Shown here piece by piece: positions 20,687 to 43,560 of a stretch of DNA of 43,738 nucleotides. The first letter of the stretch is position 1. Every line of letters starts with the position of its first letter. Source of the DNA: Patescibacteria group bacterium (lineage in GTDB: Bacteria > Patescibacteriota > Gracilibacteria > Peribacterales > Peribacteraceae). The notes beneath the pieces were generated by a model that had not been told where the DNA came from, searched no databases, and was given only the letters and a program-made list of their open reading frames with translations. Where the stretch lies: the NCBI GenBank assembly GCA_043819035.1, contig JBDRFD010000029.1, positions 1 to 43,738 of the forward strand, written 5' to 3'. A program made the translations under genes and the position numbers.

Positions 20687-20703
20687 GCGTCCGAGCCACC
20701 ATT

Positions 20704-20820
20704 TGTCAGAATCACGGATTACACTGATTCAACGGATTTCACAGATATTCGTTAAAGTGTGGCATGCAATTTTTATAATCCGTGTAATCCGCTTAATCCA
20801 TTAAATCCGTGATTCTGACA
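20704..20820. repeat. Family A inverted-repeat element; probably also the aspS terminator
   Basis: TGTCAGAATCACGGATT (20704..20720) and AATCCGTGATTCTGACA (20804..20820) are a perfect 17-bp inverted repeat followed by TTTTT. TAATCCG-type units are tandemly repeated in the interior. Confidence 0.85.
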
Positions 20821-20894
20821 TTTTTCCCGCTAACTGCTAATCCCCCATATTTGGGACACTAGTGGCTATTCTGGCCTATTTGTGCTAGAATAGG

Positions 20895-21926
20895 ATGATG
20901 CCCAAAAAGAAACCCAAAAAGAAACCGGGCCGAAAAAATCTGAGCCCAAAAGCCGCCCGTAAAGCTTTTTTACAGAAGCAATTTATGCAGGCCCAGCAAC
21001 TTGTCTTCAAAGAAAAAGCTCGCCAGGAAGCTACTAAAGGGGAACACAAAGAGGAAAGGGCAGCTGGGGAAGAGCTCGCACAGGAGCAGCTCAGTGAGAG
21101 ACAGCTTGAGGAAGAAAAGCAAAAGAAGGGGCGTGAGGAATGGAAGAAGAAAGAAGAAAAGGAAAAGGAGCTCCTCGCAGAAATGAAACGCAAACAAGAA
21201 GAAGAGAAGAAAAACCGCCGGAAATTCAAAGAACATCTGCAGGAGGAAGAGAAAAAGAATAAGCAACTGATGGAAGATCTCGCCGCTTCGAATGCCATCC
21301 GAGATAAAATGGAACGCAGAAAGATGGAAGGAGCTAAACTGGAAAGAGATACCAGGGCAGAGGCGAAAAGTACCGAAAACCGCAAACAGAATGAAGCTGA
21401 GATGAACGCAAAGAGTAAGAAGAAACAACTGGAATTGGCTAACAGAAAGGTGCAGGGGAAAATAGATGAAGAAGAACGGAGCAAAACGTATGTACTGGAG
21501 GATGAAGCACGAAGGCAAAAGGCAAAGCTTGACAACCAAGAACGCAAAAAGAAATCTGATCTTAAGTTCGCCTATGAACGCAAGCGAGCTGAAACACAAC
21601 GATTCACGAATCCGTATCAACAAAAAAGCGAAGTTATGAAGATTGACCGTGGGGAGCAAAGTGAACTGAAAAAGATAGAGGCAGAAACGCGCAGGCAGCA
21701 ATCGGAAATTGATGCGAAAACCAAGAAGGCGATCTTCGATGTTCAAAAGGAAGCAAGCCACAAGCGCGGTCAGGCCGCCTCGGATGAGCGCGGGCAAATA
21801 ACGCAGATCGACCTGGAGAAGCGTGAGGCCAAACGCCTGGCAGAACTGGAGGCCTCGCAGAAAAAGGCCGGCATCCGCCGCAGGCAGATCAAGATTTTGC
21901 ACGGAGAAGAGGAAACGGATTCCTAA
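20895..21926 (+). CDS. Highly charged Lys/Glu/Arg-rich low-complexity protein (343 aa)
   Basis: The plus frame gives a coiled-coil-like K/E/R sequence. The antisense ORFs are F/L/S-rich shadows. The 3' end has a diverged second copy at 22659..22715 with mostly synonymous differences, which supports this reading frame. Confidence 0.6.
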   Translation: MMPKKKPKKKPGRKNLSPKAARKAFLQKQFMQAQQLVFKEKARQEATKGEHKEERAAGEELAQEQLSERQLEEEKQKKGREEWKKKEEKEKELLAEMKRKQEEEKKNRRKFKEHLQEEEKKNKQLMEDLAASNAIRDKMERRKMEGAKLERDTRAEAKSTENRKQNEAEMNAKSKKKQLELANRKVQGKIDEEERSKTYVLEDEARRQKAKLDNQERKKKSDLKFAYERKRAETQRFTNPYQQKSEVMKIDRGEQSELKKIEAETRRQQSEIDAKTKKAIFDVQKEASHKRGQAASDERGQITQIDLEKREAKRLAELEASQKKAGIRRRQIKILHGEEETDS

Positions 21927-21962
21927 TGCACCGAACCAGGATTGAGGAGCTCCACTTCGTCT

Positions 21963-22319
21963 TCAAGAGTCACCATCCATATCGTTAAGCATTATGGTGA
22001 TTACTTTTTTGAGAACAGGCAGGTCTTTTTTAACAGTATCCCATACTCTCTGAACATTTGTCGCAGAGTATTCGTGAATGAGAATGTTGCGCATACTAAT
22101 AGCTTCCTTCCAGGATATCTGCTTGTACTTCTTTCTTAAAAGAACCGGCAGTTTACTGGCGGCTTCTCCGATAATCGATATCTGACGAATGACAGCATCC
22201 TGAGTTTTATCATCTCTACAAAACAATCTCTTCCCTTCGGTTGTGTATTCCTCAATATGAACAATGGCATTCAGGATATCATCCAAATATACCCGAACAT
22301 CTTTCTGTTGCTTGGTCAT
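21963..22319 (-). CDS. hepT: HEPN-domain (DUF86) toxin of a HepT/MntA-type module
   Basis: The R-x4-H motif is MRNILIHEY. The size and the 4-bp overlap with the upstream nucleotidyltransferase gene fit. Confidence 0.85.
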   Translation of the reverse strand: MTKQQKDVRVYLDDILNAIVHIEEYTTEGKRLFCRDDKTQDAVIRQISIIGEAASKLPVLLRKKYKQISWKEAISMRNILIHEYSATNVQRVWDTVKKDLPVLKKVITIMLNDMDGDS

Positions 22320-22627
22320 AATGCTCGAGCATCGGAAAGAATGCGCCTGCGTAGCGCAGGCTTGATGCTATCATCCGGAATAACATCTATTTTCCTTTGC
22401 AGAGTTTCTTCCAAATCAATTTTTAGTCCTGCAAGATCAAATAGCGTACTCCCCTTTGGCATCTTCACCAGAAGATCCAGATCGCTGCCCTTGGTCTGTT
22501 CCCCGCGGGAAAAAGAGCCGAAGACACGTACATTGCGCACTCCATGTTTGCGCGCAATACGCAACACCGGTGCACGCAGTCGTGCCATATTAAATCTCGC
22601 CTTGTGCAATTTCTTCTGATTGCTCAT
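22316..22627 (-). CDS. mntA: Minimal nucleotidyltransferase (MNT) antitoxin
   Basis: VFGSFSRGEQTKGSDLDLLV contains the GS-x-RGE...DxD nucleotidyltransferase motif. Confidence 0.85.
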   Translation of the reverse strand: MSNQKKLHKARFNMARLRAPVLRIARKHGVRNVRVFGSFSRGEQTKGSDLDLLVKMPKGSTLFDLAGLKIDLEETLQRKIDVIPDDSIKPALRRRILSDARAL

Positions 22628-22729
22628 AGCCTTATTATATCAAAGAACTATAAGACATAGAAAAAGGCCGGTATCCGCCGCAGGCAGATCAGAATCTTGC
22701 ATGGAGAAGAGGAAGAGTAATACGGCTTC

Positions 22730-22758
22730 GCGGAAAATATGCCATAAGCGTTTTCCGC
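22730..22758 (+). terminator. Hairpin after the relic copy of the K/E-gene 3' end
   Basis: GCGGAAAA, a 13-nt loop, then TTTTCCGC, followed by TAATTATT. Confidence 0.4.
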
Positions 22759-22894
22759 TAATTATTGAACATATGTACGATTCCGCTATGCCGCTATTAC
22801 TGCATATTTCTAGAAGTAATTAGCGTTAATTTCTTAACGATCTATCAGCAGAATGCTAGGCACAATCCCTAAAGAGAATTAGACTAAACACTGT

Positions 22895-22981
22895 GCCCAG
22901 GTGGCGGAATTGGTAGACGCGCTAGCCTTAGGAGCTAGTGGGATTAATCCCGTGGAGGTTCGATTCCTCTCCTGGGCACCA
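22895..22981 (+). tRNA. tRNA-Leu (anticodon UAG), class II with a long variable arm, CCA encoded
   Basis: Hand-folded cloverleaf. Acceptor GCCCAGG/CCTGGGC. Anticodon stem CTAGC/GCTAG with loop CTTAGGA. Variable arm GGGAT-TA-ATCCC. T arm GGAGG-TTCGATT-CCTCT. Discriminator A followed by CCA. Confidence 0.93.
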
Positions 22982-23116
22982 GAATTGAATCACATCAAAT
23001 AGCCTATTAGAATTTGTCATCTCCGAAAGGAGCCGTCCGTAGCTCCAATTTGTCCTACATAACTTTGGCAACGGAGGAAGGAGCGAGGGAGGCTCCTGGG
23101 CACCAGAAGATATTTA

Positions 23117-25444
23117 TTAAGCAATGTTTAAGTCGTCTGGACTAATAGTATCCGTCATGCCAACACTAGGATCGAGGGGCTCTGCAGCAAAATTATCATC
23201 TGGATTAACTTTAAACCCATCCATGAATTCTTGTTCCGCAACCTTCGCAAAGTAACCATTGGAATCTTTCTCGGGATTAGAATGTATGTGTTTCTTCCCT
23301 ACGTCTACAGAGATGGCTGACTCGTCTATATATTCTGCATTCATCCCTCGAGCTTGAGCATGACCGATTAGTGTAACAAGCTCTTGTGGGTCTGCGCTTA
23401 ATCTAAGTTTCATTTCAATTCTCCCATTAACTGCTTTTACATCAACATTGTATTTCATTGCGTCTGTATTTTTTTGAACAGTTTCAGCACATTCATTAAT
23501 ATCAAATTCTTCTGCTGTTTCTGGTACTTTGTCTGTTTTTTCGGCTGGTGCTGCAGCCACTTCTGTCGATTCTTTCGTTGATTTTGGTTCTGGTGTAGGA
23601 ATTTCGACTGTTGGGCTTTTGTCTGATTCTGTTGCTGTTTCTTCGGGTGCTTCTGCCGTAGCCTCATTTGGTTTTTTGACCGGCTCTTTTTCCGGAGCCT
23701 CTGCAGCTGGTTCATCAATTATCTTCGCACCTTTTTCGTCCATTAATGTATGACTCCATGAGGTACCTTCGTATCCTGATCCTTTATTAGGCCCATATCC
23801 TTCCTGTGTCTTCCAGAAACCGTCTTCGCCTTTCTGCCAACGATACCCATCTGAATCTTCGCGCACTTGTCCTTCTGGTGCATCTTTTGCCGGATCAAGT
23901 GCAGTTGGCTCTTCTTCCGGAGCCTTTTCTATTTTGCCTTTCTTTCCCTTTTTCTTCTCTTCCTTTTTTGTTCTATTAGCCTCTAGTTTTTCCACAACAG
24001 ACTTAAGAGTCTGCATGAATACTTCTGGAGGATTGCTCACAACATTTTTTCCATTCACTTTTACTGCTTCATCTACGCCAAGTTCGGCTGCCAAATCGTT
24101 TAGAGCTTGTACTGCCTCACCAGAATTGAACTTGATCTTCACCCTCATCTTTCCCTCTTGGAATTCAACCTTACTTATTCCGTTTATCGCCTGACCCAGC
24201 CTTGGGTCAAGTTCATTTGCTCTACTCTTTAGCGTGTTAATAACTTGATTTAGCCCATCTGCTGTAGTTTTTAAAGCTTCTACTTCGCTCTTAAATTCTT
24301 CTACATCTTTTTTAATCTTTGCACTTCTATTCTCAAGCTTATCAATTTGTTTTTGATTGGTATTAATCTTGTCATCAATCTTATTAAGCTTTTTCTCCAG
24401 TCTTGCCTTAGTCCTCTCAAGTTTCTTTACCCTTTTTGGATCGTTGGCTGCCTCTGCAATCTCCTCTCCTATTACACTAATCTCCTCTGTAAGTTCTGTC
24501 TTCTTTGTACCTAGCTTTTCGTTCTTACGAGTAAGCTTCTTAACTTCTTTATCATTCTTCGCAATCTTTTTCTCCTTCATCTCTACAAATTCGTCTGGTG
24601 TCTTTGCTCCCAATTCTTCATATTCACTCTTTGGTTTCTTATTGCCCTTTTCGGCCCCCTCTTTGTCTTCACTCTCTTTACCATCCTTTGGATCCTCATC
24701 TGGCTTTTCGTCATTTTTATCAGCCGTGTATTGTGCTGCTTCTGGACTGTTGCCACTCATTTTATTAGCTAGCTCCATTATCTTTTCTATAAGGACGCCT
24801 AGAACTGCTATGGCACCTTCGATCCCTTTCGAAAAAGCCTCTGCTGGTGTGTTCTTAGGATCATTGGCTTCACTCATCTTTTCTATAGCAGTTTGCAATT
24901 CGCTCTTTATCTTTGGCACTTCCGCGCTCGCCTCCGGCGATGCATCATCCAATTCCCCTTTCGCCTTGTCTGCTGTTTCAAGCCCAGCATCTAATTTCTT
25001 TCGTGCTTGAGCAACGGTATCCACATTACTGTCCTTTAAATTATTTGCTTTTTCTGGTTCATTACCAATATCCATTTTTGGAGCTTCAACAGGGGGAATT
25101 GGTTTCAAATCTACACTTGGAATATCGGCGGGCACTGCGTCTGGCTCATCGACCCCTGTTAGTACTGGACTTGCATCTGGAAGGCCATCTTCCGCAGATG
25201 CATCTGGTACCGATTCTGCTCTGGCCATCGATGCAGCAAGCTCCGTTCCTATTTTTGTTTTTGCTTTTTTCTCTACGGCCTGTTCCATTTTGTCTTCATT
25301 TATTAAATCGCTAAGTTCCTCTGGATTGATATTTTCAGGTAACACATTCTCCGGCTTTTCTTTTGGCGTTAAAGATAACCTAATAAGACGATGCTCACGA
25401 GCATCCGCGCCAGAACCTGTTTGTATATGTTTATGCGTAAACAT
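23117..25444 (-). CDS. Large acidic coiled-coil protein (775 aa), no signal peptide, unknown function
   Basis: A 2.3-kb ORF. It has central K/E-rich heptad-like segments and Pro/Glu/Ala-rich linkers. The C-terminal ~130 aa look globular. Confidence 0.7.
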   Translation of the reverse strand: MFTHKHIQTGSGADAREHRLIRLSLTPKEKPENVLPENINPEELSDLINEDKMEQAVEKKAKTKIGTELAASMARAESVPDASAEDGLPDASPVLTGVDEPDAVPADIPSVDLKPIPPVEAPKMDIGNEPEKANNLKDSNVDTVAQARKKLDAGLETADKAKGELDDASPEASAEVPKIKSELQTAIEKMSEANDPKNTPAEAFSKGIEGAIAVLGVLIEKIMELANKMSGNSPEAAQYTADKNDEKPDEDPKDGKESEDKEGAEKGNKKPKSEYEELGAKTPDEFVEMKEKKIAKNDKEVKKLTRKNEKLGTKKTELTEEISVIGEEIAEAANDPKRVKKLERTKARLEKKLNKIDDKINTNQKQIDKLENRSAKIKKDVEEFKSEVEALKTTADGLNQVINTLKSRANELDPRLGQAINGISKVEFQEGKMRVKIKFNSGEAVQALNDLAAELGVDEAVKVNGKNVVSNPPEVFMQTLKSVVEKLEANRTKKEEKKKGKKGKIEKAPEEEPTALDPAKDAPEGQVREDSDGYRWQKGEDGFWKTQEGYGPNKGSGYEGTSWSHTLMDEKGAKIIDEPAAEAPEKEPVKKPNEATAEAPEETATESDKSPTVEIPTPEPKSTKESTEVAAAPAEKTDKVPETAEEFDINECAETVQKNTDAMKYNVDVKAVNGRIEMKLRLSADPQELVTLIGHAQARGMNAEYIDESAISVDVGKKHIHSNPEKDSNGYFAKVAEQEFMDGFKVNPDDNFAAEPLDPSVGMTDTISPDDLNIA

Positions 25445-32439: not shown

Positions 32440-33010
32440 TGAGCAACTGAACACCCCTCGCCTTAAAGGCGAGGGGTTCGCGCTGCACTGAAGTGCCCTC
32501 GTTATTGGATATCCACAGTTCCGTGCTGCAATTCTTCTCCTTCTTGATTATCGATGTATTCCTTAATCATCTCATCTGTGATCGCACCACTTGATACTGC
32601 AAGGTATCCTCTTGCCCAGAAATGACGCCCCCAGAAGGTTTTGCGGACAGATGGAAAGAGAGAAAACAGTTTGTAAGGGCTTTCCCCTTTGATCTTTTGC
32701 ATAAGTTTTGAAATTGAAAGATGTGGTGGGTAGGATGCGAAGAGATGGACATGATCAATGGCAACTTTCCCTGAGATGATCTCTACATCTTCTTCCTGAC
32801 ATATTTGACGGATGAGATCTCGTACTTTCTCTCCAACTTGCCCATACAGTATTTTTTTGCGGTATTTTGGAACCCAGACTAGATGAACTTTAAGATCGTA
32901 TTTGCTGTGAGAAGTGGTGCGATAGTGCCTCATAAAAAGGCCACGTAGGGTACCACAAGTTGAGTAAGTGTCGAACTGAAGTCTCCGCCTAAAGGCGGGG
33001 GGTTTCACCC
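32440..33010 (-). mobile_element. IS200-type insertion sequence (IS200/IS605 family, tnpA only); boundaries approximate
   Basis: tnpA is flanked by subterminal hairpins CCCCTCGCC-TTAAA-GGCGAGGGG (32454..32476) and CTCCGCC-TAAA-GGCGGGG (32983..33000). Confidence 0.8.
32502..32933 (-). CDS. tnpA: IS200/IS605-family Y1 (HUH) transposase TnpA
   Basis: Motifs are MRHYRTTSHSKYDLKVHLVWVPKYRKK, the HUH motif HVHLF, and a C-terminal Tyr region (YIDNQ). I moved the start to 32933 so that the upstream hairpin is non-coding. Confidence 0.9.
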   Translation of the reverse strand: MRHYRTTSHSKYDLKVHLVWVPKYRKKILYGQVGEKVRDLIRQICQEEDVEIISGKVAIDHVHLFASYPPHLSISKLMQKIKGESPYKLFSLFPSVRKTFWGRHFWARGYLAVSSGAITDEMIKEYIDNQEGEELQHGTVDIQ

Positions 33011-33040: not shown

Positions 33041-34201
33041 TTACTCCTCCTGCAACCTAAGAGGCATTATCAGGTGCAGCGACTGCTTTGCAGATGGAAT
33101 GTGGAATACCGCGGGGTGCATACTATCTGTGATGTGTACTTCCACCTCTTGATCGTCCACATGAGTTAAAAAGTCGAGGAGGTACGAGGAGCTTAGGGCA
33201 ATCTTGTTCGCGCTTCCGTCGACCGACACATCAAGCGTGGCTTCGTCTGTTCCGATCTGCGTCTGTGGAGTTTTGATGTGAAGGGATCCCTTTTTGAAAC
33301 TGAATGTGAGATTGTTATTAATCTCTTTCGCGAAGTAGTGCATACGTTTTACAACCGTAAGGAGTTCCTTTGTAGGAATCTTCACCTTGGTATTCGAGTC
33401 TTTTGGAATAATCTGCTGATAGTCCGGGAACTTTCCTTCGATCAGGCGCGAAAGGAGTTGTGTCTGCCCCACTGCCAATTCAATTTGTTGGCTACTCAAA
33501 GAGATCTCAACCTTTGGAGCTGCCTTTTTCTTTTTGTCCTCTTCTTCTCCACCCTTTTCTGTTTTCCCATCCTCCTTTTTGGAACCCAGTACACTCTTAA
33601 GTTCTTCCAAGACCTTTGCAGGAATGATGCAGGAGATATCGGATCCTCCGCTCATCGGAATACTATATTCAGAGAGTCTGTAGCTGTCTGTGGCCACAAA
33701 TACCAATTTCCCCTTCTCCGCGCGCAAATATACTCCGGAGAGTACCGGTCTTAGTGTTGATTTCGCTGATGCGAATGTCACCATATGAAGCGCATCCAGA
33801 AGCGGACCGGTATCCAAAGAGAATGACACTTCTTTTTCTATGGATGTGATTGTGGGATATTCAGATGCTGCTTCACCTGCAATTATTGTCTTTGCGTGTT
33901 TAGAGGTACATTTAAGTTGGGTCCCCTCACTGGTCTCCAAGAGAACCTCGTCATCAGAATTATATTGCGCAAAGTTTAATATTGCTTTTGATGGCACCGT
34001 AATCGCCCCCTCGTTTTCTATACTCGCTTCAAAGCTTGTCACAATACTCAGTTCCAAATCGGTTGCACTTACGGTGCACCTCTTTCCTTCGGCCACAATT
34101 AAAATATTTCCAAGAATCGGAAGTGCCTGCTGCCCGCTTATCGCACGACTCACAAGATGAATTGATTGGAGAAGTTGTGATGTTTGGCAGGAAAATTTCA
34201 T
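33041..34201 (-). CDS. dnaN: DNA polymerase III beta sliding clamp
   Basis: The N-terminus is MKFSCQTSQLLQSIHLVSRAISGQQALPILGNILIVAEG. The three-domain length fits, and the C-terminus is LIMPLRL. A K/E-rich insertion (KKEDGKTEKGGEEEDKKKKAAP) is present. Confidence 0.95.
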   Translation of the reverse strand: MKFSCQTSQLLQSIHLVSRAISGQQALPILGNILIVAEGKRCTVSATDLELSIVTSFEASIENEGAITVPSKAILNFAQYNSDDEVLLETSEGTQLKCTSKHAKTIIAGEAASEYPTITSIEKEVSFSLDTGPLLDALHMVTFASAKSTLRPVLSGVYLRAEKGKLVFVATDSYRLSEYSIPMSGGSDISCIIPAKVLEELKSVLGSKKEDGKTEKGGEEEDKKKKAAPKVEISLSSQQIELAVGQTQLLSRLIEGKFPDYQQIIPKDSNTKVKIPTKELLTVVKRMHYFAKEINNNLTFSFKKGSLHIKTPQTQIGTDEATLDVSVDGSANKIALSSSYLLDFLTHVDDQEVEVHITDSMHPAVFHIPSAKQSLHLIMPLRLQEE

Positions 34202-37469: not shown

Positions 37470-37574
37470 AATTGTATAATTAAAAAGAAATAAGGATTAA
37501 TTTAATCAATAAAACAGTCTTAAGTCAAGGTTGATCCCCGGAAATTCAACAAGGATTAGAATATGTGACACAAC

Positions 37575-37700
37575 GTTTCGGAATATGGGGCTTGTCCCCC
37601 GCCCGTCTCGGCGCGTCCGAGCCGCGACGGAAAGCCCCGTCCCGCTTAAGTGGCAGGACGAAGGCGGAAACCGTATATGTCGTGTAAGGCGACGTATGGT
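37575..37700. other. GC-rich, strongly self-complementary non-coding segment within an AT-rich spacer (candidate structured RNA or element relic)
   Basis: GGGGCTT (37584..37590) pairs with AAGCCCC, enclosing CGTC-TCGG-CGCGT-CCGA-GCCGC-GACG. A further stem is ATATGTCG-TGTAAGG-CGACGTAT. I found no match by eye to tmRNA, RNase P or SRP core motifs. Confidence 0.3.
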
Positions 37701-37989
37701 GCAGGCGATTTGTAATATACAGAAGAGACAGGAAAAGGATTTTTATTCCGTAATACTCCGCACTTAGAGTGCGGGGTAGTTCATTAAACAAAATACACAA
37801 GGAAATGTTGCACTGTTTCTATTGAGAAAGATTTAAGCAATCTTGTGTTTGGTTGCATAACAATTAAATCTCAGACTGATATGATGTTCACTTATGTTCG
37901 AGTAAGAATTCATTTTGATTTTTGTTATGGCGCAGGTAAATATTCTTGATATTTGAAACCACTGAATATTGTACGAATAGATTCACAAC

Positions 37990-38421
37990 TTATCCGGGCA
38001 TGACACGTGGATTATCGCTGAAGTCATTTTCTGCACATGCGTTGTAATACTCAATTAGCTCTTCAATCTGTGCTTCTACCAATCGCTCTTTAATGTGTTG
38101 TCGTTCGAGTGCAATTTTTAACAAACGAGGTGAGAGATACTTAATGTTATCCACCTCTTTTGCACTTGCATGCCCCTCTATTGCAACCATTGCTGCCTCT
38201 CCAACATCATCATCGTCTCGCAAAGCAAGAGGTAAGTCTCTTAGCAATAGAGGCTCTCTCGACACACCAAAGATTGCAACCCTCTTCATTGATTTAATGT
38301 GATGAGGAGCATCTTGATAGCTTCTGAAAAGATTCTTGCCCATGGCAGCAAGTACTGCTGATACTTCAATATCAGGATCAGCACCATCTTCTTGCCCGCG
38401 CATATCGTCAGGTGATGTCAT
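37990..38421 (-). CDS. Hypothetical acidic protein (143 aa)
   Basis: ORF from ATG 38421 (MTSPDDMRGQEDG...). No recognisable motif. Confidence 0.45.
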   Translation of the reverse strand: MTSPDDMRGQEDGADPDIEVSAVLAAMGKNLFRSYQDAPHHIKSMKRVAIFGVSREPLLLRDLPLALRDDDDVGEAAMVAIEGHASAKEVDNIKYLSPRLLKIALERQHIKERLVEAQIEELIEYYNACAENDFSDNPRVMPG

Positions 38422-38534
38422 AATTATATAATAACATAAAATGTTATAGATATCAATTGTGCTGTGCGGTGGACAACCTTTAAATACTGTTTTTTGTATG
38501 TTTTTCCCCTTCCCAAGCAAAAAATTCTTCGCGC

Positions 38535-38693
38535 AACACGGCTTATGTGGCTCGTCGGCGGCACTTTATGAGATTTCTACAATATTGACTGTGCCACCTC
38601 CTCGACCCAAATGCTTCGGCTGTAGCCCTGCGGGACATTATACAGCCTCGCACTTCACATAAGCCGAAACGTTGGCCAAAATAGATTTTTTCC
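38535..38693 (+). repeat. Structured ~155-nt element, left copy (inverted partner at 39721..39876)
   Basis: It is closed by GGCTTATGTG (38540..38549) pairing with CACATAAGCC (38656..38665). The inner stem is GGCTGT...ACAGCC around a CCC-TGC-GGG hairpin. The termini are AAC...GTT. Confidence 0.85.
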
Positions 38694-38899
38694 CTCCTTC
38701 CTGCCACCGTCGCACATGTGCGACGTGGCCTGCGGTTGCCCTCCGCTTTTCTTTTCGTTAACCGAACAAATACATTCAAACTACGATAATCGGTAGTTGA
38801 TTGATTGCTTGACTCTTGTATTGTTTCTGAGTTCCTGCAAGGGACGATAAGAGTAGGAACAGGTCCTGCTCATTCACAACTTTTTTCGGAGGAACGATC

Positions 38900-39619
38900 A
38901 TGTTTGGAAGAATTCAAGAATTCTGTGTACGTAGAGCGGATAGGTGTCGGATGAAAAAAGTGGCAGTAATCATCCGAAATGTCGATTGGCATTGGAATCA
39001 ATATCGACAAGAGCACTATCTGAACTATTTCTGGATTCCGGCTGGGCGTTCACGCGTCCTTGCTCGCAGATTGATACTCAAGAATCTGCGCAGCGCTGCC
39101 TATTACACCCTCGACGACGTCAGCAAATGGCTGATGATACTTCATCTCCTGGATAAAGGAATCCAAAGCACAGAAAGGTCCGGACAGGCTATCATCGATT
39201 GCCTCAGAGAAAGTGCCACGGAGTGCCAGATCGATATTATCGGCACTGTCTTTGAGTGCAATATTCCTGAAGCTATCGTCCGGAAGATATGCGATTCGGA
39301 AGAGAATGTCATATCCCTTCGCCGGAAGGGGCACGCAGTTCCTGCCGACATCCTTGATCCTCTCGTGGAACACGCTGCTGAAAGTGGCGAACTCGAGAAG
39401 CTCAGAATCCTATACGGAACTGAGCCCCCGGAACAATTTCTGCATGTATGCATGGAAGCTGCACGTACACGGAACATACCGGTGGCGGTTGAGTGTGCGC
39501 AGGTTCTCAGAGACTATCGGGCACTTGCCGAGATACTCTCTGTTGCAGGCACGCCCCACGAGATGCTCACAGCCAAGTTGTATCTTGAGGGACGAGTACC
39601 AGAAAGCGAACTCTCATGA
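38900..39619 (+). CDS. Hypothetical protein (239 aa) bracketed by the inverted structured repeats
   Basis: A strong Shine-Dalgarno GGAGGA lies 7 nt upstream of the ATG, which is unusual in this window. No recognisable motif. Confidence 0.6.
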   Translation: MFGRIQEFCVRRADRCRMKKVAVIIRNVDWHWNQYRQEHYLNYFWIPAGRSRVLARRLILKNLRSAAYYTLDDVSKWLMILHLLDKGIQSTERSGQAIIDCLRESATECQIDIIGTVFECNIPEAIVRKICDSEENVISLRRKGHAVPADILDPLVEHAAESGELEKLRILYGTEPPEQFLHVCMEAARTRNIPVAVECAQVLRDYRALAEILSVAGTPHEMLTAKLYLEGRVPESELS

Positions 39620-39720
39620 CCCGTCCAATTAAGAGCAGGACCACGCAAGCCCTGTACCACCAAGGTATGGGGCTTCTTAAACACGTACGAAAAGAAAAGC
39701 TGCGGGTACCTTGGAATTCG

Positions 39721-39876
39721 GGAAAAAATCTACATCGGCCAACGTTCCGGCTTATGTGAAGTACGAGGCTGTATAATATCCCGAAGGGGCACAGCCGAAG
39801 AATTTGGGTCGAGGAGCGCCGACCTCCTTAATTTAAAAATCAAAAAAGAGGCGCGACGAGCCACATAAGCCGTGTT
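39721..39876 (-). repeat. Structured ~155-nt element, right copy (reverse complement of 38535..38693)
   Basis: The reverse complement aligns with the left copy over a 23-nt 5' block and a ~95-nt 3' block at roughly 85-90% identity by eye. A non-homologous central hairpin sits between the blocks. Confidence 0.85.
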
Positions 39877-40018
39877 ATATGATGTACGTACTTTTCCTTT
39901 TACTCGCCAGAGCGAGACTGCTCTTAATATAATCCGATTTTGTTTCCACCTTTTTAGCGACGGGTAGAGGGGAATTAAAGGGGTGAATGCCCGGAGCACA
40001 AAGAAAACAACAAACAAT

Positions 40019-41527
40019 TTACAATTTTTCCAATGCATCCTTCAGAACCATCGTTGCCTTGCAATCATCTTCGTTGTATTCGAGAATTCTATCCATTATG
40101 GATTCATCTTTTGTTTCGAGATACTTATTGAACCATTGTATAGACAGCGCACCTGATGGTGTTTCGTCTCTCCATTTGAATTTAAGATATGTTGCTAGTG
40201 CTTTTAGTGAATAACTGCCAACAGGCCAGTCCGTATGCTTTTGTACAACACTGTATAGGTCAATAACATTTGGATTATCGTAAAAATCTTCAACCTCTTT
40301 CAATGTTATTACATCAGGATATCGTTTTTGTAGTCTCTTGTAGGTCGTTTTCTCATGATGTGAGTAGTAATAAACAGCAAAATCATTCGGTGGTAGTGAG
40401 TTAATGTAACCCCAAAAGTCCTGCCAGATTTTTTTCTCTGCATCATCGGAAATCTCATTGGCAGTAAAATGAACAAAGTGTTCACCGTTACTATTGCGCT
40501 CATAAACACCATGAAGGTAGACAAAATCTTGAGTTGGATCGTCTTCTATATCAAAAAAGAGCTCGTGGCTTACCTTCGGGAAATCTAAAGTGCCATACAA
40601 AACAGGCTTCTTTGTTCGATGTAGGATATTTGCTCTGCAAACAGCTTTTGCCAGACTATCTTTTCCAATTCGATACAAAAAATCCTTGTTTCCAGACTTC
40701 TTCTCACTCTCTTTTTGCTTCATTACTTCCTCAATATCCAAATCAACAAATTCGTCTAAGCTCTCGATGAGGAGATCTTCGTTGATTTTGTCACGGTTGT
40801 TCCTTCCTACGTAGAACACAGTTGTGAGATCCTGCGCTGCTTCACACCACTTTTTACAGGAATTGTACCATGGGCAAAGTGTGCAGACAGCAGACATAGC
40901 CGGTTTGTTTTTGTCCTGATTACTCATGAGAATTGCTACATTGTTTTTGACTTGTTCGTAGTACTCCCACCACGTCATCTTTGATCGTGGTCCCATAAGA
41001 GCGGATAAGTCGTACTTCACCTGCTCACCATGTATATCAATGACGATACCGTTATCATGAGAGCAGAATCCGATAGCCTTGAGGAGTTCGTTGTAGAGGC
41101 AAAGTTGCACAGCGTAATGCTTCTTTGGCTTTCCTTCGTCTCCCGTTTTTTCATCGGCTCCTTCTTTGCCCGTACCTGATTTAATGTCGATGGGCATGTA
41201 GGTATCATCTGGCAACTTTTTGAGGAGATCGGGTATGCCGAGCATGTTTTCATGAATAAGTACACCTTGGTAGATCAGCGGAGATTTGTTCTTCATTGCT
41301 TCAATAGTTTTCGTAAAACGCTCAGAGTGATTGCCTTCACTGAGATCCAGATATTCACCAATTTGAGAGACAATCTTTTCTTCATGCTTCACACCCTTTT
41401 TCCACAGGAGCTCAACGAAAGGGTTTGTTTCTTCAATTTTCTCTTCCTGTGGACCGTAAATGTCACGCCAGACGCGGTGAGGACATTGAATATAGTCGTA
41501 GAGCTTTGAGGCTGTAATATATGTCAT
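40019..41527 (-). CDS. TM0106-family RecB-like (PD-(D/E)xK, Cas4-like Cys cluster) nuclease fused to a C-terminal RNase H-like exonuclease-type domain
   Basis: The N-terminus is MTYITASKLYDYIQCPHRVWRD. Motifs are IPDLL...MPIDIKSG, the Cys cluster CTLCPWYNSCKKWC, and the C-terminal FFDIEDDP...YYYSHHEKT...DCKAT. I moved the start to ATG 41527. Confidence 0.85.
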   Translation of the reverse strand: MTYITASKLYDYIQCPHRVWRDIYGPQEEKIEETNPFVELLWKKGVKHEEKIVSQIGEYLDLSEGNHSERFTKTIEAMKNKSPLIYQGVLIHENMLGIPDLLKKLPDDTYMPIDIKSGTGKEGADEKTGDEGKPKKHYAVQLCLYNELLKAIGFCSHDNGIVIDIHGEQVKYDLSALMGPRSKMTWWEYYEQVKNNVAILMSNQDKNKPAMSAVCTLCPWYNSCKKWCEAAQDLTTVFYVGRNNRDKINEDLLIESLDEFVDLDIEEVMKQKESEKKSGNKDFLYRIGKDSLAKAVCRANILHRTKKPVLYGTLDFPKVSHELFFDIEDDPTQDFVYLHGVYERNSNGEHFVHFTANEISDDAEKKIWQDFWGYINSLPPNDFAVYYYSHHEKTTYKRLQKRYPDVITLKEVEDFYDNPNVIDLYSVVQKHTDWPVGSYSLKALATYLKFKWRDETPSGALSIQWFNKYLETKDESIMDRILEYNEDDCKATMVLKDALEKL

Positions 41528-41614
41528 ATTGAGTGCATGGTACGCTCTCAGTATGCTTGCGGAAAGGATCAATAGAGGGAACACACACTCTTGTATATTG
41601 CGGTTGTGTGATGG

Positions 41615-43207
41615 CTACACATCAGCGACAATTCCTAAATATTTTTTGAAGTAATTTCTCAGTCCATCATCAACAATGTAGATATATGTTCCGTGTATTC
41701 CCCGTGTGAGCAGTGTCTTATAAATGTTAATTATATAGCGTTTCAATTCTGCTGGGTCTTGTATGCCTGCATGGCCTTTTGTATCAAAGTACAACTCTTT
41801 ATTAACGACAAACGTTTTATTTTCAGAATCATACGATAGCTCTGGTCCAATGATGACACCAACGTAGTTCAGGTCATACCCCTGTATGGTGTGAATGCAC
41901 CCCACTTCGTTGATTGCATTTGGAGAATTCACCCAGTCGTGCGACGTGCTATTCCATACCAATTTGATGCCATCGATCTCAATGTCATAATCTTGCGCTT
42001 GCTCATCCTTTCCCTTCTTCGTGTTCCAAGGCCAAGCATATCCAGCCACGACGCGACAGAGTCCGTGTTCTATTTCTCGTTGCTTGATGTCGTTAAGGAA
42101 TGGGCGAATATCCTCATACAATCGAAATTCGTATTCACCGAATTTACGTGTGGTTGGCACCTGTCGATTGAACAGATGCTCGATGAAATCGATGTACTCT
42201 GTTCCGCCCTTCACTCTCACCTGTGTGGAAAGTTCAAAGTAGTCGGTATGGATAGCATCAAAGTCTTCTGCGCGTACATCGGAAGGCTTAATCGATTGAT
42301 TCTGATCGTAGAAAAGAACGTGGGCGCGAGACGACTGTAGAATCCAGTTCAGTTCAGTAGCATCTTCCGGTAAGTTTAATTGCTTGTTTATGGCATCAAA
42401 GGCGGCGTAATTCGTGATATTCTTACGTCGGCGCAGTCGGTGCGCCTCATCAACGATTAAGAGGTCGTATCCGCCTCTGGTTGCATCTGCTGGGCCAATG
42501 ACCATAGAACTCTTCAGCCCTTTTACGTGCCTGAAGACCTTTTGGACCGTTTTGCGCAGAGACATCATTGGCACCACCAGTCCCACATTCAGATGTTGCG
42601 TTTTCTCGTTTTCCTGCAGATATTTGAAGAGGTAGATGGCCAAGATTGTCTTGCCTGTGCCAGGCTTGCCGTTGACGATATAGGTGTGACTTTTTTGTTG
42701 TTCTAGATCTTCCACAATAGAGTGGGCGACAGACATTTGATCTTCCGTGAGTGATTTGTAAGGGGAATACTTAAAAAGATCGCCATTCTTGATTTCAGCC
42801 ATGGTATGGGTGGCCAGCTCCATCTCACGCAACTTTTCCCATGCAAGCTCGAACTTAGTCTTGTATCGTTCTTTGTCGTAGTAATTGTGATCCTTCATGC
42901 CTCCGTTTCCATTCTGTAGAATAAAACGTCCATCGCCGGACATGTACTGGATCAGCCACGATTCTATGTCCAGCGTTGCAGAGACGTTGAATTCCTCATC
43001 AGAAATGACATGCATGGTGGAAAGCTTCCGCTTCTCTACATTTTCGTAATGTTGTTTGCAACGAGAGAGAAGATGGACAGTTTGGCCGATGTAGACCTCT
43101 TTACCGTTTTCCGATACGTAAACGACAGGCCAATTGGTACCAAAGTAGTATTCTCTCCATCTCTGAAACGATTCGGGCTTGAACGGGAGGGAGTAGATTT
43201 TGGCCAT
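41615..43207 (-). CDS. GIY-YIG-like N-terminal domain fused to a DUF2075 (Schlafen group III helicase-like) P-loop ATPase
   Basis: The GIY-YIG-like segment is VVYVSENGKEVYIGQTVHLLSRCKQH. Walker A is NGKPGTGKT and Walker B is LLIVDEAHRL. The C-terminal segment is IHTIQGYDLNYVGVIIG. Confidence 0.85.
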   Translation of the reverse strand: MAKIYSLPFKPESFQRWREYYFGTNWPVVYVSENGKEVYIGQTVHLLSRCKQHYENVEKRKLSTMHVISDEEFNVSATLDIESWLIQYMSGDGRFILQNGNGGMKDHNYYDKERYKTKFELAWEKLREMELATHTMAEIKNGDLFKYSPYKSLTEDQMSVAHSIVEDLEQQKSHTYIVNGKPGTGKTILAIYLFKYLQENEKTQHLNVGLVVPMMSLRKTVQKVFRHVKGLKSSMVIGPADATRGGYDLLIVDEAHRLRRRKNITNYAAFDAINKQLNLPEDATELNWILQSSRAHVLFYDQNQSIKPSDVRAEDFDAIHTDYFELSTQVRVKGGTEYIDFIEHLFNRQVPTTRKFGEYEFRLYEDIRPFLNDIKQREIEHGLCRVVAGYAWPWNTKKGKDEQAQDYDIEIDGIKLVWNSTSHDWVNSPNAINEVGCIHTIQGYDLNYVGVIIGPELSYDSENKTFVVNKELYFDTKGHAGIQDPAELKRYIINIYKTLLTRGIHGTYIYIVDDGLRNYFKKYLGIVADV

Positions 43208-43209
43208 AT

Positions 43210-43560
43210 TTATAGCTGGTTATATTTGTGGTGCTTGCCTTTGGATTTGCTGACAGGATACTTATTGGCATTCTTCTGCAGTTTTTCCTCCATAGCCTGC
43301 AGCAAATCAATTCCCAAGTTATCCGAGAATTCAAAGAGATAAATGGCCACATCTGCTATCTCTTCTCCTATCTCATCTTGGTGTGTTTTTACGTACTCTT
43401 CTACTTCTTCCTTGTCTTTCCATTGGAAATGTTCCAGCAGTTCAGCAGCTTCAATTGTGATTGAGGCTGCCATACTCTTCGGATCGTGAAACTGCATCCA
43501 GTCACGTTCGTCGCGAAATGCTCTGATCTGTCTCAAAATTGTATTAAAATCTATCATCAT
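43210..43560 (-). CDS. MazG-like nucleotide pyrophosphohydrolase (small all-alpha NTP-PPase)
   Basis: FRDERDWMQFHDPKSMAASITIEAAELLEHFQW...EEIADVAIYL carries the E-x-x-E...E-x-x-D metal-binding pattern. Its stop lies 2 nt before the DUF2075 start. Confidence 0.85.
   Translation of the reverse strand: MMIDFNTILRQIRAFRDERDWMQFHDPKSMAASITIEAAELLEHFQWKDKEEVEEYVKTHQDEIGEEIADVAIYLFEFSDNLGIDLLQAMEEKLQKNANKYPVSKSKGKHHKYNQL

Follow-up and report, generated by a model that had tools for sequence, protein, structure and literature searches.

Two structured repeats in inverted orientation bracket an orphan gene in the window, by which we mean the whole 43,738-nt stretch of Peribacteraceae DNA analysed here, and the question is whether they are the ends of a mobile element, the sites of a recombination system or RNAs. 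The two copies reported in a preliminary description of this DNA are indeed present, with a mean column identity of 86% in pairwise alignment, and the covariance model R1 delimits them, and a weak third candidate, as follows.

38535..38673, plus strand: core copy L (R1 129.7 bits, E 1.9e-30)
39741..39876, minus strand: core copy R (R1 150.3 bits, E 1.2e-35)
37572..37754, minus strand: candidate decayed third core (weak; 8.9 bits, E 0.12 by R1 with filters off; also an inverted-repeat match)

A repeat search of the window returned one pair of inverted arms of 23 nt at 100% identity (38535-38557 / 39854-39876) and another of 104 nt at 88% (38598-38701 / 39713-39816), and an 18-mer and a 30-mer of the element occur twice each in the window, against shuffle expectations of 0.01 and 0.00. 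Copy L reads AAC-A-L'' (CGGCTTATGTGG)-P2 arm-CCCAAAT-P3 hairpin-ATTATA-L' (CACATAAGCCG)-AAAC-GTT, and copy R has an identical architecture. Folding recovered the stems proposed earlier, namely a closing stem of 10-12 bp (GGCTTATGTG/CACATAAGCC), an inner GGCTGT/ACAGCC stem capped by a small hairpin and, apart from these, a middle hairpin. The further proposal that this middle hairpin had been swapped for an unrelated one holds in part: a separate hairpin does fold in both copies, but their sequences are not unrelated, since the loop motif TTTnTGAgATTT is retained. Across the family this stem is homologous, evolves fast and has undergone compensatory changes; in the model set out below it would be the P2 arm. 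The length given for the unit, ~155 nt, was too short, because the conserved stretch is longer and inverted arms extend beyond AAC and GTT (38674-38765, 39687-39740 and 39877-~39990). The third candidate retains the stem CGGAATA/TATTCCG followed by AAAC-GTT; its junction motifs are gone.

These repeats belong to a family, with about 70 further core copies on contigs of Peribacteria, Peregrinibacteria and other Patescibacteria. Pattern scans yielded 6 genome loci and 14 loci from metagenomes with genuine copies, once 9 of 15 genome matches and 15 of 29 metagenome matches had been dropped, by eye and with the covariance model, as chance palindromes or coding sequence. The covariance-model search that the preliminary description had recommended gave ~48 copies in the pattern-scan loci; both the additional copies and the covariation on which it had staked its reading were found. 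Outside the window, every array of copies detected by the covariance model has a single orientation, with six copies in locus L009, four in L031 and three each in L021, L016, L008, L019 and L038. The interval between cores usually holds one or two ORFs (one to a few genes overall), mostly co-oriented with the cores, and the cargo comprises restriction-modification and other defence-type genes as well as many ORFans. Two element patterns found no match among viral contigs, and the element is therefore not phage-borne in that collection. The window shares synteny with L009 through genes for an MBL and a GlmU-like protein, yet the cassettes differ. Copy R agrees in orientation with the L009 array relative to the MBL gene and with L014/L034 relative to the RecB/Cas4-like gene, and copy L has the reverse of the orientation expected from synteny. 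From this comparison copy L is probably a flipped core, and the two cores of the window would be inverted to each other because of this one flip.

A core is ~105-190 nt long and consists of invariant AAC and GTT ends, a closing stem P1, a variable arm P2 and an inner hairpin P3; P2, the covarying P3 and CCCAAAT, a conserved motif that stays unpaired, are at a three-way junction. The equivalents of the R box and the L box are paired around an unpaired spacer, the asymmetry of which (1 nt on one side, 4 nt on the other) is found in every copy. In 45 copies, 92.2% of stem cells are paired, against 72.9% in shuffles and 30-43% in slid controls, and both sides have changed in 21 of the 24 pairs; covariation is strong in P3 and P3b, both distant from any crossover. 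As DNA, the bottom strand is the more stable in 37 of 43 copies (mean 2.7 kcal/mol, Wilcoxon p = 1e-7), with -27.4 against -20.5 kcal/mol for the top strand in copy L, and the robust helices hold 28 A.C mismatches against 6 G.U; part of this strand asymmetry could be due to base composition. An apparent preference for the top strand in the whole RNAalifold structure (52 G.U against 29 A.C) was rejected, as it stems from three doubtful pairs chosen on the top strand and is reversed by the robust helices. Some cores are chimeric, their L'' and L' halves being mismatched, and in locus L058 whole genes lie within the P2 arm, where P1 pairing would span 0.5-1 kb.

The starting point of the arrays is an attI-like site, next to which a divergent tyrosine recombinase is encoded. 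At 8 of the 11 recombinase loci fetched, with 7 distinct recombinases, the array starts about 65-125 nt from a divergent recombinase gene encoding ~270 aa; the gene is divergent from and upstream of the array in L016, L043, L046, L051, L053, L056 and L058, while in L055 the recombinase and the attI-like site are accompanied by a single AAC...GTT element that was seen by eye and missed by R1, and L057 has the recombinase and attI-like site only. This conserved site, 65-125 nt away from the start codon at all of these loci, is made up of TTCG(C/T)ATAA repeats, 5-8 nt and then GTT. The array recombinase scores 211.6 bits with NF040815 ('XerA/integron integrase'; cut-off 220), 199.8 bits with TIGR02249 ('integron integrase'; cut-off 265) and 119 with PRK15417 (435), in each case below the cut-off, and its scores with XerD (179) and XerC (177) are far under theirs. 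Among PDB entries it matches VchIntIA best (2a3v, E 1.8e-40), with a C-terminal G-x-x-SPL motif common to both; in the two stretches of this alignment, made with the L016 protein (identical to P0001), the ~43-aa IntI-specific insertion is missing, VchIntIA 183-245 being replaced by query residues 179-198 (20). It belongs to a very large CPR family (5412 matches at E < 1e-30) and could be the housekeeping Xer, with the attI-like site as dif. A scan of the window for the recombinase of this system and for an attI-like site found neither, and the window is therefore linked to the recombinase only through homology of the sites.

The ends of cassettes match one another, and those of elements do not. 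In 17 of 24 cassettes, the 4 nt that follow the GTT of one element are fully complementary to the 4 nt preceding the AAC of the next, whereas the flanks of a single element are so in only 3 of 38 cases and pair at 3.6 of 8 positions, against a background of 3.5; the observed mean of cassette-end pairing was not attained in any of 20000 permutations. Further matching ends were found in L058 (9 of 10 cassettes) and L056 (4 of 4), and at related loci the bases after the attI-like GTT are matched by the far end of the first cassette, the ends of which match in L016, L043, L046, L051, L053 and L056. A cassette takes the form TT-N4-GA... at its start and ...TC-N4-AA at its end, with inverted arms specific to it. 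Three strains (L050, L051 and L052) carry an identical recombinase and an attI-like site that is identical as far as GAGGGAGTTGT; past it, L050 continues into an MFS cassette (100% identity to L021 1-383) and L051 and L052 into a 198-aa cassette, the strains parting from GTTGT onward. The N runs in L050 (308 and 339 nt, in a UBA scaffold) were taken as scaffold gaps, and the evidence for alternative junctions comes from the sequences flanking them. Comparison of these junctions shows that cassettes have been exchanged, the crossover falling on the conserved AAC/GTT or directly beside it.

The intervals around the two cores of the window can be described in the same terms.

38505..38534, plus strand: end arm of the left-hand cassette, CCCAAGCAAAAAATTCTTCGCGC directly before AAC
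38674..38765, plus strand: start arm of the 239-aa cassette, GGCCAAAATAGATTTTTTCCC ... CCGCTTTTCTTTTCGT, an inverted repeat of the end arm of the same cassette
38900..39619, plus strand: 239-aa orphan ORF, cassette cargo (ORF list)
39687..39740, plus strand: end arm of the 239-aa cassette, ACGAAAAGAAAAGC ... GGGAAAAAATCTACATCGGCC, abutting AAC and complementary to the start arm
39877..39990, minus strand: long conserved 5' arm of copy R, which is the end arm of the RecB/Cas4-like cassette, with GGAAAAGTACGTACATCATAT directly before AAC, and TTAAGAGCAG
40019-41584, minus strand: Cas4/RecB-like nuclease with an RNase_H_2 domain (Pfam, PADLOC)
41615-43207, minus strand: GIY-YIG plus SLFN-g3/DUF2075-type helicase, with weak Nhi/AbiO similarity (Pfam, PADLOC)
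43210-43560, minus strand: MazG-like protein (Pfam, PADLOC)

Judged by its ends, the 239-aa ORF is an ordinary cassette: it starts with GTT and GGCC...TTTTTTCCC and finishes with GGGAAAAAA...GGCC and AAC, the 4 nt adjacent to the triplet being GGCC on both sides. Alignment of the start arm with the reverse complement of 39680-39743 gives conserved blocks of 31 and 26 nt, and the start arm also holds a 31-nt insertion with a small hairpin of its own; the end arm is homologous to the one that precedes L041:105-252. The idea that the 239-aa protein might be a hidden recombinase was rejected, with no sign of a recombinase or DNA-binding fold, as the ORF has no match in Pfam, NCBIfam or PADLOC, an exact-protein lookup was empty, a homologue search of 5.8 billion proteins returned only the protein itself, the single-sequence AlphaFold2 model is all-helical and of low confidence (pLDDT 52.5), and a Foldseek comparison of this model with the PDB gave nothing below E 0.19. 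The left-hand cassette carries a 176-aa ORF (37990-38520, minus strand), and its end arm is near-identical to that of the MFS cassette before L021:1310 (CCCAAGCAAAAAATTCTTCGCAC before AAC). On the other side, the arm at 39877..39990 is 77-89% identical to the sequence that precedes the core in L004/L038, L027, L001/L026, L032 and L014/L034, the genes ahead of it there being unrelated, and a matching inverted arm comes after GTT in L001 and L014. By their domain content the genes to the right of copy R (40019..43560) are defence-type cargo resembling that of arrays elsewhere, and the RecB-like gene together with its arm and core is 84% identical to L014/L034. We also considered the right-hand genes as a sign of cassette mobility and discarded them, the homology of the RecB-like gene with L014 stopping within the gene, not at a site; likewise, the helicase has no kinship with that of the first cassette of L057 beyond the family level. 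By analogy with CALIN elements, which are attC clusters lacking an integrase, the window would contain the tail of a cassette array.

Altogether, we favor, at a probability of about 0.72, a model whereby the repeats of the window are attC-like cores of an integron-like cassette platform of Peribacteria/Peregrinibacteria and other CPR bacteria. Each cassette would comprise one or few genes, or none, with cassette-specific inverted arms at its ends, and a core of ~105-190 nt would part consecutive cassettes, with P1 as the equivalent of the L box. Cassette exchange would be catalysed by the Xer-like recombinase, which its sequence suggests to be kin to integron integrases, and the core would probably act as a folded single strand, likeliest the bottom strand, in the manner of integron attC and CTX-phage attP(+). 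The left core of the window probably flipped between its own inverted arms. The early impression that the termini recall attC R/L boxes and might be recombination sites of a cassette system thus gains from the arrays, from the complementary cassette ends split at AAC/GTT and from the stem covariation, and it is also backed by the adjacent tyrosine recombinase and attI-like site in related genomes. A bolder version, which we put forward tentatively and at somewhat less than even odds, is that the ~270-aa recombinase annotated as 'XerD / integron integrase', which almost all CPR bacteria have, is the integrase of a phylum-wide integron analogue, or doubles as the chromosomal Xer, and captures cassettes beside its own gene through folded three-way-junction sites without the IntI-specific domain that is regarded as essential to attC recognition. 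Genes might then dock in the variable arm as well, the integron principle might here have been invented independently, or the system might be a surviving relative of the Xer-like ancestor of integrons, and it might be a main route for the acquisition and shuffling of defence genes in these tiny genomes.

We regard as unlikely that the cores are instead double-stranded modules of the Xer/dif type, comparable to Acinetobacter pdif and IMEX, in which the two core ends (R''-spacer-L'' at the 5' end, L'-spacer-R' at the 3' end) would be duplex sites in alternating orientation for the single Xer of the cell, and the chromosomal dif, adjoining xer as in XerS/difSL, would be what we call the attI-like site; genes could then lie within cores as well as between them, with strand folding dispensable. 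Such modules would suit an Xer-like recombinase that has no IntI insertion and comes from a family found almost throughout CPR bacteria, they would accommodate chimeric cores, and they would account for the genes of L058 in both inter-core and intra-core P2 intervals, each with matching inverted arms. The core ends can also be read as a double-stranded dif-like inverted repeat, CATAA-N6-TTATG, and at the 5' end CATATAA-CACGGC-TTATGTG has an ATAA-N6-TTAT arrangement like that of dif. However, the central regions are unequal, ~6 against ~9 nt, and the constant 1-versus-4-nt asymmetry is better suited to a bulged fold, P3 and P3b covary strongly far from the crossover, and the asymmetry of the strands in wobble pairs and in energy would be unexpected for duplex sites. 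It is quite improbable that the covariation is that of RNA structure and the cores are structured RNA genes or leaders, whether a small RNA, a cis-regulatory element ahead of each cassette gene (cis-regulatory and antisense RNAs had been suggested before) or an RNA cofactor of the recombinase. Consistent with RNA are the three-way junction, the conserved unpaired CCCAAAT and ATTATA/TATAAT, the very strong covariation, the start of most co-oriented ORFs 40-250 nt past the core and a promoter-like TTCACA-17-CAAAAT across the core 3' end. Nonetheless, no Rfam family fits: at gathering score Rfam 15 returned only tRNA for the whole window, and for 38400-40000 at E <= 10 the best match, an unrelated one, had E 1.7. 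Moreover, wobble pairs and energy both favor the strand antisense to most cassette ORFs, cores also occur before reversed ORFs and core genes and at the ends of arrays, and RNA alone would leave unexplained the complementary N4 ends, the attI-like site and the strain polymorphism at GTT.

Hardly any weight attaches to miniature transposable elements (MITE; REPIN/PATE moved by the IS200-like Y1 at 32502-33008), or to the terminal repeats of a 1.34-kb composite around the 239-aa gene. Cores are palindromic and multi-copy, assemblies break at copies, and a Y1_Tnp gene (PF01797, E 2.4e-40) lies 5.5 kb off, but the Y1 protein of the window is an IS200/IS605 TnpA (NF033573, 149 bits) and not REP-associated (23.9 bits against a cut-off of 80). 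On these NCBIfam scores, together with the absence of core copies flanking the Y1 gene, the RAYT/REPIN idea that the gene had prompted was rejected. The ends of a transposon should match each other; the mismatch of same-element flanks and the match of cassette ends therefore argue against one, and no target-site duplication was seen. Nor do arrays of one orientation anchored at a tyrosine recombinase fit the terminal inverted repeats of a non-autonomous 1.34-kb element that had been envisaged for the pair, the inverted arrangement being peculiar to the window and attributable to the single flipped core.

Integrons, the classic gene-capture device of bacteria, owe their definition to a special integrase domain, and only a limited number of phyla are known to have them. 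The platform proposed here resembles them in the divergent tyrosine recombinase that adjoins a primary site (at the related loci, not in the window), in the one-orientation arrays parted by imperfect palindromes that run from ...AAC to GTT..., in a crossover at the triplet such that the distal right-hand box belongs to the next cassette, in a conserved structure with variable sequence of which the bottom strand apparently folds, in the ORFan and defence cargo and in the occurrence of arrays without an integrase; the closest solved relative of the recombinase, VchIntIA, shares its G-x-x-SPL tail. By contrast, the CPR recombinase lacks the defining IntI insertion and stays under the TIGR02249 cut-off, and the CPR sites, at mostly 105-190 nt, exceed those of integrons in size and have a three-way junction with conserved motifs in place of a simple bulged hairpin. 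Their boxes are usually TC-N4-AAC and GTT-N4-GA rather than RYYYAAC and GTTRRRY, which fit some copies only (as with the ACCTAAC and GTTAGGT of L009), the cassette ends bear long inverted arms of 25-90 nt, and genes may also lie inside the variable arm of the site. The ~124-nt VCRs, the attC sites of the Vibrio cholerae superintegron, are likewise long, similar imperfect palindromes between ORFan cassettes in a chromosomal array, and they too were first noticed as 'repeats' and understood only later; they have no sequence similarity to the CPR cores, however, and are single bulged hairpins served by a canonical IntI.

In CTX-phage, an Xer-type recombinase acts on a folded single-stranded hairpin of ~150 nt that has two inverted dif-like halves and an unpaired centre, and successive integrations of the IMEX of this type make arrays beside the chromosomal site. 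The proposed system would share with these a recombinase that acts on a folded single-stranded site without the IntI insertion, and arrays beside a primary site, but its inserted units are small gene cassettes and not phage genomes, its sites exist in dozens of variants with covarying stems, and its primary site, at most a putative dif, is directly beside the recombinase gene. Acinetobacter pdif modules are similar in being small and bounded by inversely oriented, alternating sites, with module-specific inner arms like those of L058 and the 239-aa cassette. They differ in that pdif sites are 28-bp duplexes without an intervening structured core, their arrays have no anchoring recombinase gene or primary site, and the covariation of the internal hairpin of CPR cores has no pdif counterpart.

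Patescibacteria are not on a published list of integron-bearing phyla (PMC8618304), and full-text searches of the literature returned no description of integrons in CPR bacteria or of such a gene-capture system. If an Xer-like enzyme without the IntI domain runs the platform, this would bear on the origin of integrons from Xer and on what recombination of folded DNA requires. For CPR biology, the platform would explain how ultra-small symbiotic bacteria undergo gene flux at the level of strains, with restriction-modification and other defence cassettes among the genes concerned, and thousands of 'XerD/integrase' annotations would merit re-examination; with the covariance model and the attI-like motif the system can be searched for at once. 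The platform would likewise account for the breaks of CPR assemblies at these repeats. Finally, we note that the skew maximum of the window, at ~22 kb, is 16 kb away from the cores.

Just outside the invariant AAC and GTT ends of the ~140-nt hairpin-forming element (the core) lies a variable tetranucleotide (N4) followed by a conserved TC/GA, and the pairing of these flanks follows the prediction for an integron-like cassette, against that for a transposon-like unit. A transposon-like unit predicts pairing between the two flanks of one element, whereas an integron-like cassette, comprising the gene or genes between consecutive cores, predicts that the bases after GTT pair with those before the next AAC. 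Within a cassette, start and end showed perfect N4 pairing in 17 of 24 cases, with a mean of 5.5 of 8 positions paired that was reached in 0 of 20,000 permutations. The two flanks of the same element paired perfectly in 3 of 38 cases (mean 3.6 of 8, against a background of 3.5 of 8 for flanks from different loci), and a transposon-like unit was rejected because the element's own flanks are unmatched. Cassette-end pairing extends to more distant arrays (9/10 in L058, 4/4 in L056), and in some cassettes it spans 25-55 nt of arm. Since cassette ends match each other, we conclude that cassettes entered as units and that a single palindromic site, opened at AAC/GTT or immediately beside it, gave rise to both ends. 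A MITE or REPIN was also rejected, given the unmatched flanks and the identity of the nearby Y1 protein as an ordinary IS200 TnpA rather than a REP-associated transposase. This standard IS200/IS605 Y1 transposase gene (32502-33008, minus strand; PF01797, E 2.4e-40; NF033573, 149 bits) directly adjoins dnaN (33041-34201), and no copies of the structured element lie near it.

Features of the window at and around the cores
37572-37754, minus strand: possible decayed third copy of the core
38535-38673, plus strand: left core
38900-39619, plus strand: 239-aa ORF between the two cores
39741-39876, minus strand: right core
Right of the right core: Cas4/RecB-like nuclease (Pfam/PADLOC)
Right of the right core: GIY-YIG plus SLFN/DUF2075-type helicase, with weak Nhi/AbiO similarity (Pfam/PADLOC)
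Right of the right core: MazG-like protein (Pfam/PADLOC)

The two inverted, structured copies and their stems reported in the preliminary description are correct: a repeat search of the window recovered inverted arms at 38535-38557/39854-39876 (23 nt, 100% complementary) and 38598-38701/39713-39816 (104 nt, 88%), the aligned copies have a per-column identity of 86%, and each of two core sub-patterns has exactly two occurrences in the window versus 0.01 and 0.00 times expected from shuffles. Folding gave a 12-bp closing stem, P1 (CGGCTTATGTGG/UCACAUAAGCCG), and recovered the middle hairpin P2 and the inner hairpin P3 (GGCTGT/ACAGCC, topped by a small stem). The middle hairpins do form stems, as had been described, but their sequences, taken to be unrelated, have a loop motif in common and are homologous; similarly, the AAC/GTT ends hold, but conservation does not stop there, as the conserved inverted arms reach past them. 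No Rfam family matched the window cores at the gathering threshold or at E <= 10.

Further copies, for which a search had been proposed, are numerous. A closing-stem scan of species-representative genomes returned 15 loci, 6 of them true copies (in MAGs of Candidatus Peribacter, 'Peribacteria' and 'Patescibacteria group', with one binned as Planctomycetota), a 5'-block scan of metagenomes added 14 true loci, and a covariance model built from 17 distinct cores detected ~48 core copies in the genome and metagenome loci. Outside the window, the copies detected with this model have a single orientation within each array.

Arrays of cores detected with the covariance model, each in one orientation
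L009: six copies in 4.5 kb
L031: four copies, spacing about 550 nt
L021, L016, L008, L019 and L038: three copies each

One or two ORFs, mostly co-oriented with the elements, lie between consecutive cores, and the arrays occupy several genomic sites, with DnaE, Mfd and the MBL gene as neighbours. L009 is syntenic with the window (metallo-beta-lactamase 69%, GlmU-like 77% amino-acid identity) and carries a different inserted gene set at the same place; in L004/L038 the inserted genes are two restriction-modification systems. The window's RecB/Cas4-like gene, adjacent arm and core are common to L014/L034 (84%). L014 itself (JAHISE010000046.1, a k141 contig of 5760 bp), which carries this RecB/Cas4-like gene, has an identical element at both ends with a ~141-nt overlap, and represents either a circle or a stretch of chromosome flanked by two identical cores.

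At L016, a 274-aa tyrosine recombinase lies upstream of and divergent from the array, and L043 has a homologue (54% identical) in the same geometry. When contigs encoding relatives of the L016 recombinase were fetched and scanned with the covariance model, arrays were found directly upstream of a divergent recombinase in L046, L051, L053 (Peregrinibacteria, GCA_002787035.1), L056 and L058. All seven of these loci have a conserved attI-like site, 65-125 nt from the recombinase start codon, that also occurs in L055 (a Shapirobacteria relative) and L057; its sequence has TTCG(C/T)ATAA repeats in direct and inverted orientation and then, after 5-8 nt, GTT. Downstream of this GTT, the sequence is complementary to the distal end of the first cassette (for example GTACGCCA/TGGCGTAC in L051; 21 nt in L046; 31 nt at 87% in L053). 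L050, L051 and L052 encode an identical recombinase and share identical DNA up to ...GAGGGAGTTGT, past which L050 continues into an MFS-transporter cassette (100% identical to L021 1-383) and L051 and L052 into a 198-aa cassette; this divergence is strain-level cassette replacement at the predicted crossover. Three independent assemblies with the same recombinase (L047, L048 and L049) have contigs ending at the first core, and L050 has a scaffold gap (402-709) right after the attI-like GTT. These breaks are consistent with population heterogeneity starting at these sites, and the sites are a practical cause of fragmentation in CPR assemblies. At 38654-38682 (plus strand) in the window, the L' arm of P1 (TTCACA or TTCGCA) is followed after 17 nt by CAAAAT/GAAATA just beyond the crossover, a geometry that recurs at attI-like sites such as that of L016; it resembles an outward sigma-70-type promoter and could drive expression of the cassette downstream. 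The other strand of the core has a conserved TATAAT, seen as ATTATA on the top strand (38637-38642).

The recombinase has Phage_integrase and SAM-like N-terminal domains (Pfam). Its first-ranked NCBIfam model is NF040815 'XerA / integron integrase' (211.6 bits, cut-off 220), followed by TIGR02249 'integron integrase' (199.8 bits, cut-off 265), XerD (179) and XerC (177). The best solved-structure match is VchIntIA, an integron integrase of Vibrio (2a3v, E 1.8e-40), with archaeal XerA just behind. Both VchIntIA and the recombinase have a C-terminal G-x-x-S-P-L tail; their alignment is split in two, with 63 VchIntIA residues (183-245) against 20 in the recombinase, so the IntI-specific insertion is absent. 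The family numbers 5412 proteins in CPR bacteria at E < 1e-30, typically ~55% identical and ~270 aa long. On account of the scores, the missing insertion and the family size, the recombinase appears to be Xer-like, close to IntI without being a canonical IntI, and it may be the housekeeping Xer of the lineage.

Covariation, which the preliminary description had taken as a gauge of the structure, is present in the 45 copies aligned to the covariance model: standard pairs fill 92.2% of cells versus 72.9 +/- 0.8% in column shuffles and 30-43% with slid partners, and 21 of 24 pairs have changes on both sides (177 cells versus 45 expected). P1 variants, each with its complement, include CGGCTTATGTGG, CGGGTTACCCGG, GCGCTTAGCCGG, CGGGCTATGCGG, GCGGTTGTGCGG, GCGTGTATACGG and others, and P3 and the P2 stem also covary. 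The cores may also function as RNA, though this is improbable, and such a function cannot on its own explain the system, as it leaves the cassette-end matches and the recombinase with its attI-like site unaccounted for. In the robust helices the top strand has 28 A.C mismatches versus 6 G.U; a top-strand A.C mismatch is a G.T wobble on the complementary strand. With DNA parameters, this bottom strand is more stable in 37 of 43 copies (mean 2.7 kcal/mol, Wilcoxon p = 1.3e-7). Between P1 and the AAC/GTT box the spacer invariably differs in length between the two sides, with 1 nt at the 5' end and 4 nt (AAAC/GAAC) at the 3' end. Integron attC sites recombine as folded bottom strands with unpaired spacers, which the strand asymmetry and spacers of the cores would parallel.

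The main rival is a double-stranded mechanism resembling that of pdif modules, with each core end reading as a duplex dif-like inverted repeat, CATAA-N6-TTATG. Such a mechanism gains support from L058:1-10010 (GCA_018818885.1, JAHIRB010000035.1), in which four or five of ten cores hold whole genes (96-252 aa; two in one element) within the P2 arm. These cores have R''-L'' before the gene and CCCAAAT-P3-L'-R' after it, with L''/L' still matching, and the inserts have inverted ends of their own (TAAATAAAAT... / ...ATTTTATTTTTAAC), an observation that suggests the site has a second place for docking. Chimeric cores with unpairable L''/L' halves of different P1 types (L004:2727-2865, L027:4630-4769, L009:1149-1295) point the same way and would imply that exchange is not confined to AAC/GTT but also takes place within cores. 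Arguments against a double-stranded mechanism are that the spacers differ in length, that the strands are asymmetric and that P3, which lies far from any crossover, covaries. Gene-less 'empty cassettes' were also observed, one in L055:780-1090 (a 38-nt hairpin that separates the attI-like GTT from the first element) and one in L058 (~100 nt, with a core on either side). In L055 the element ends in AAC...GTT and is closed by a GC-rich stem but lacks the CCCAAAT junction; the sites of this family thus diversify between CPR lineages, whereas the attI-like motif is conserved.

In architecture the system is an integron, with an integrase, a primary site, cassettes, folded palindromic AAC/GTT sites and crossover at the triplet. 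However, its recombinase falls outside the definition of an integron integrase and its sites are unlike those of integrons in size, shape and box consensus, and it should therefore not be classed as a canonical integron. There are likenesses also to the Xer-mediated integration of the folded attP of CTX phage and to the pdif modules of Acinetobacter plasmids. Searches of published full texts turned up no account of integrons or comparable platforms in Patescibacteria, Peregrinibacteria or CPR generally; the phyla listed as integron-bearing in a 2021 review exclude these groups (PMC8618304), and in the Peribacteria genome paper the sole mention is of 'one direct repeat region' surrounding a segment of ~3 kb (PMC4736985).

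Neither a recombinase nor an attI-like site is present in the window, which reads as an array end beside the MBL gene, analogous to a CALIN (an attC cluster without integrase). The 239-aa ORF sits in a normal cassette, which starts GTT|GGCCAAAATAGATTTTTTCCC... at 38671 and ends ...GGGAAAAAATCTACATCGGCC|AAC at 39743. Its two arms are inverted repeats and, being symmetric, leave polarity to the cores only. The two window cores face each other; three lines, namely synteny with L009, whose cores face the MBL gene, synteny with L014/L034, and the possible decayed third copy on the minus strand, indicate that the right core probably keeps its native orientation, with the left core having been inverted within the pair of arms that flank it. 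The flip could have come about by site-specific recombination or by palindrome-mediated template switching. The 239-aa ORF is an orphan, with no homologue in a homologue search and no family match, and its low-confidence, all-helical model matches no solved fold; the earlier suggestion of a hidden recombinase is thus unsupported, and such an ORF is typical of integron cargo. The three genes right of the right core are defence-like. Elsewhere in the window, the cumulative GC skew peaks near 22 kb (~20000-24000), where gene orientation converges (plus strand to the left, minus strand to the right), and this may be a replication terminus; a tRNA-Leu lies at 22895-22981. The 21001-22000 bin is extremely purine-skewed (AT skew 0.51, GC skew 0.20), and two long ORFs overlap there on opposite strands (20895-21926, plus; 20970-21902, minus).
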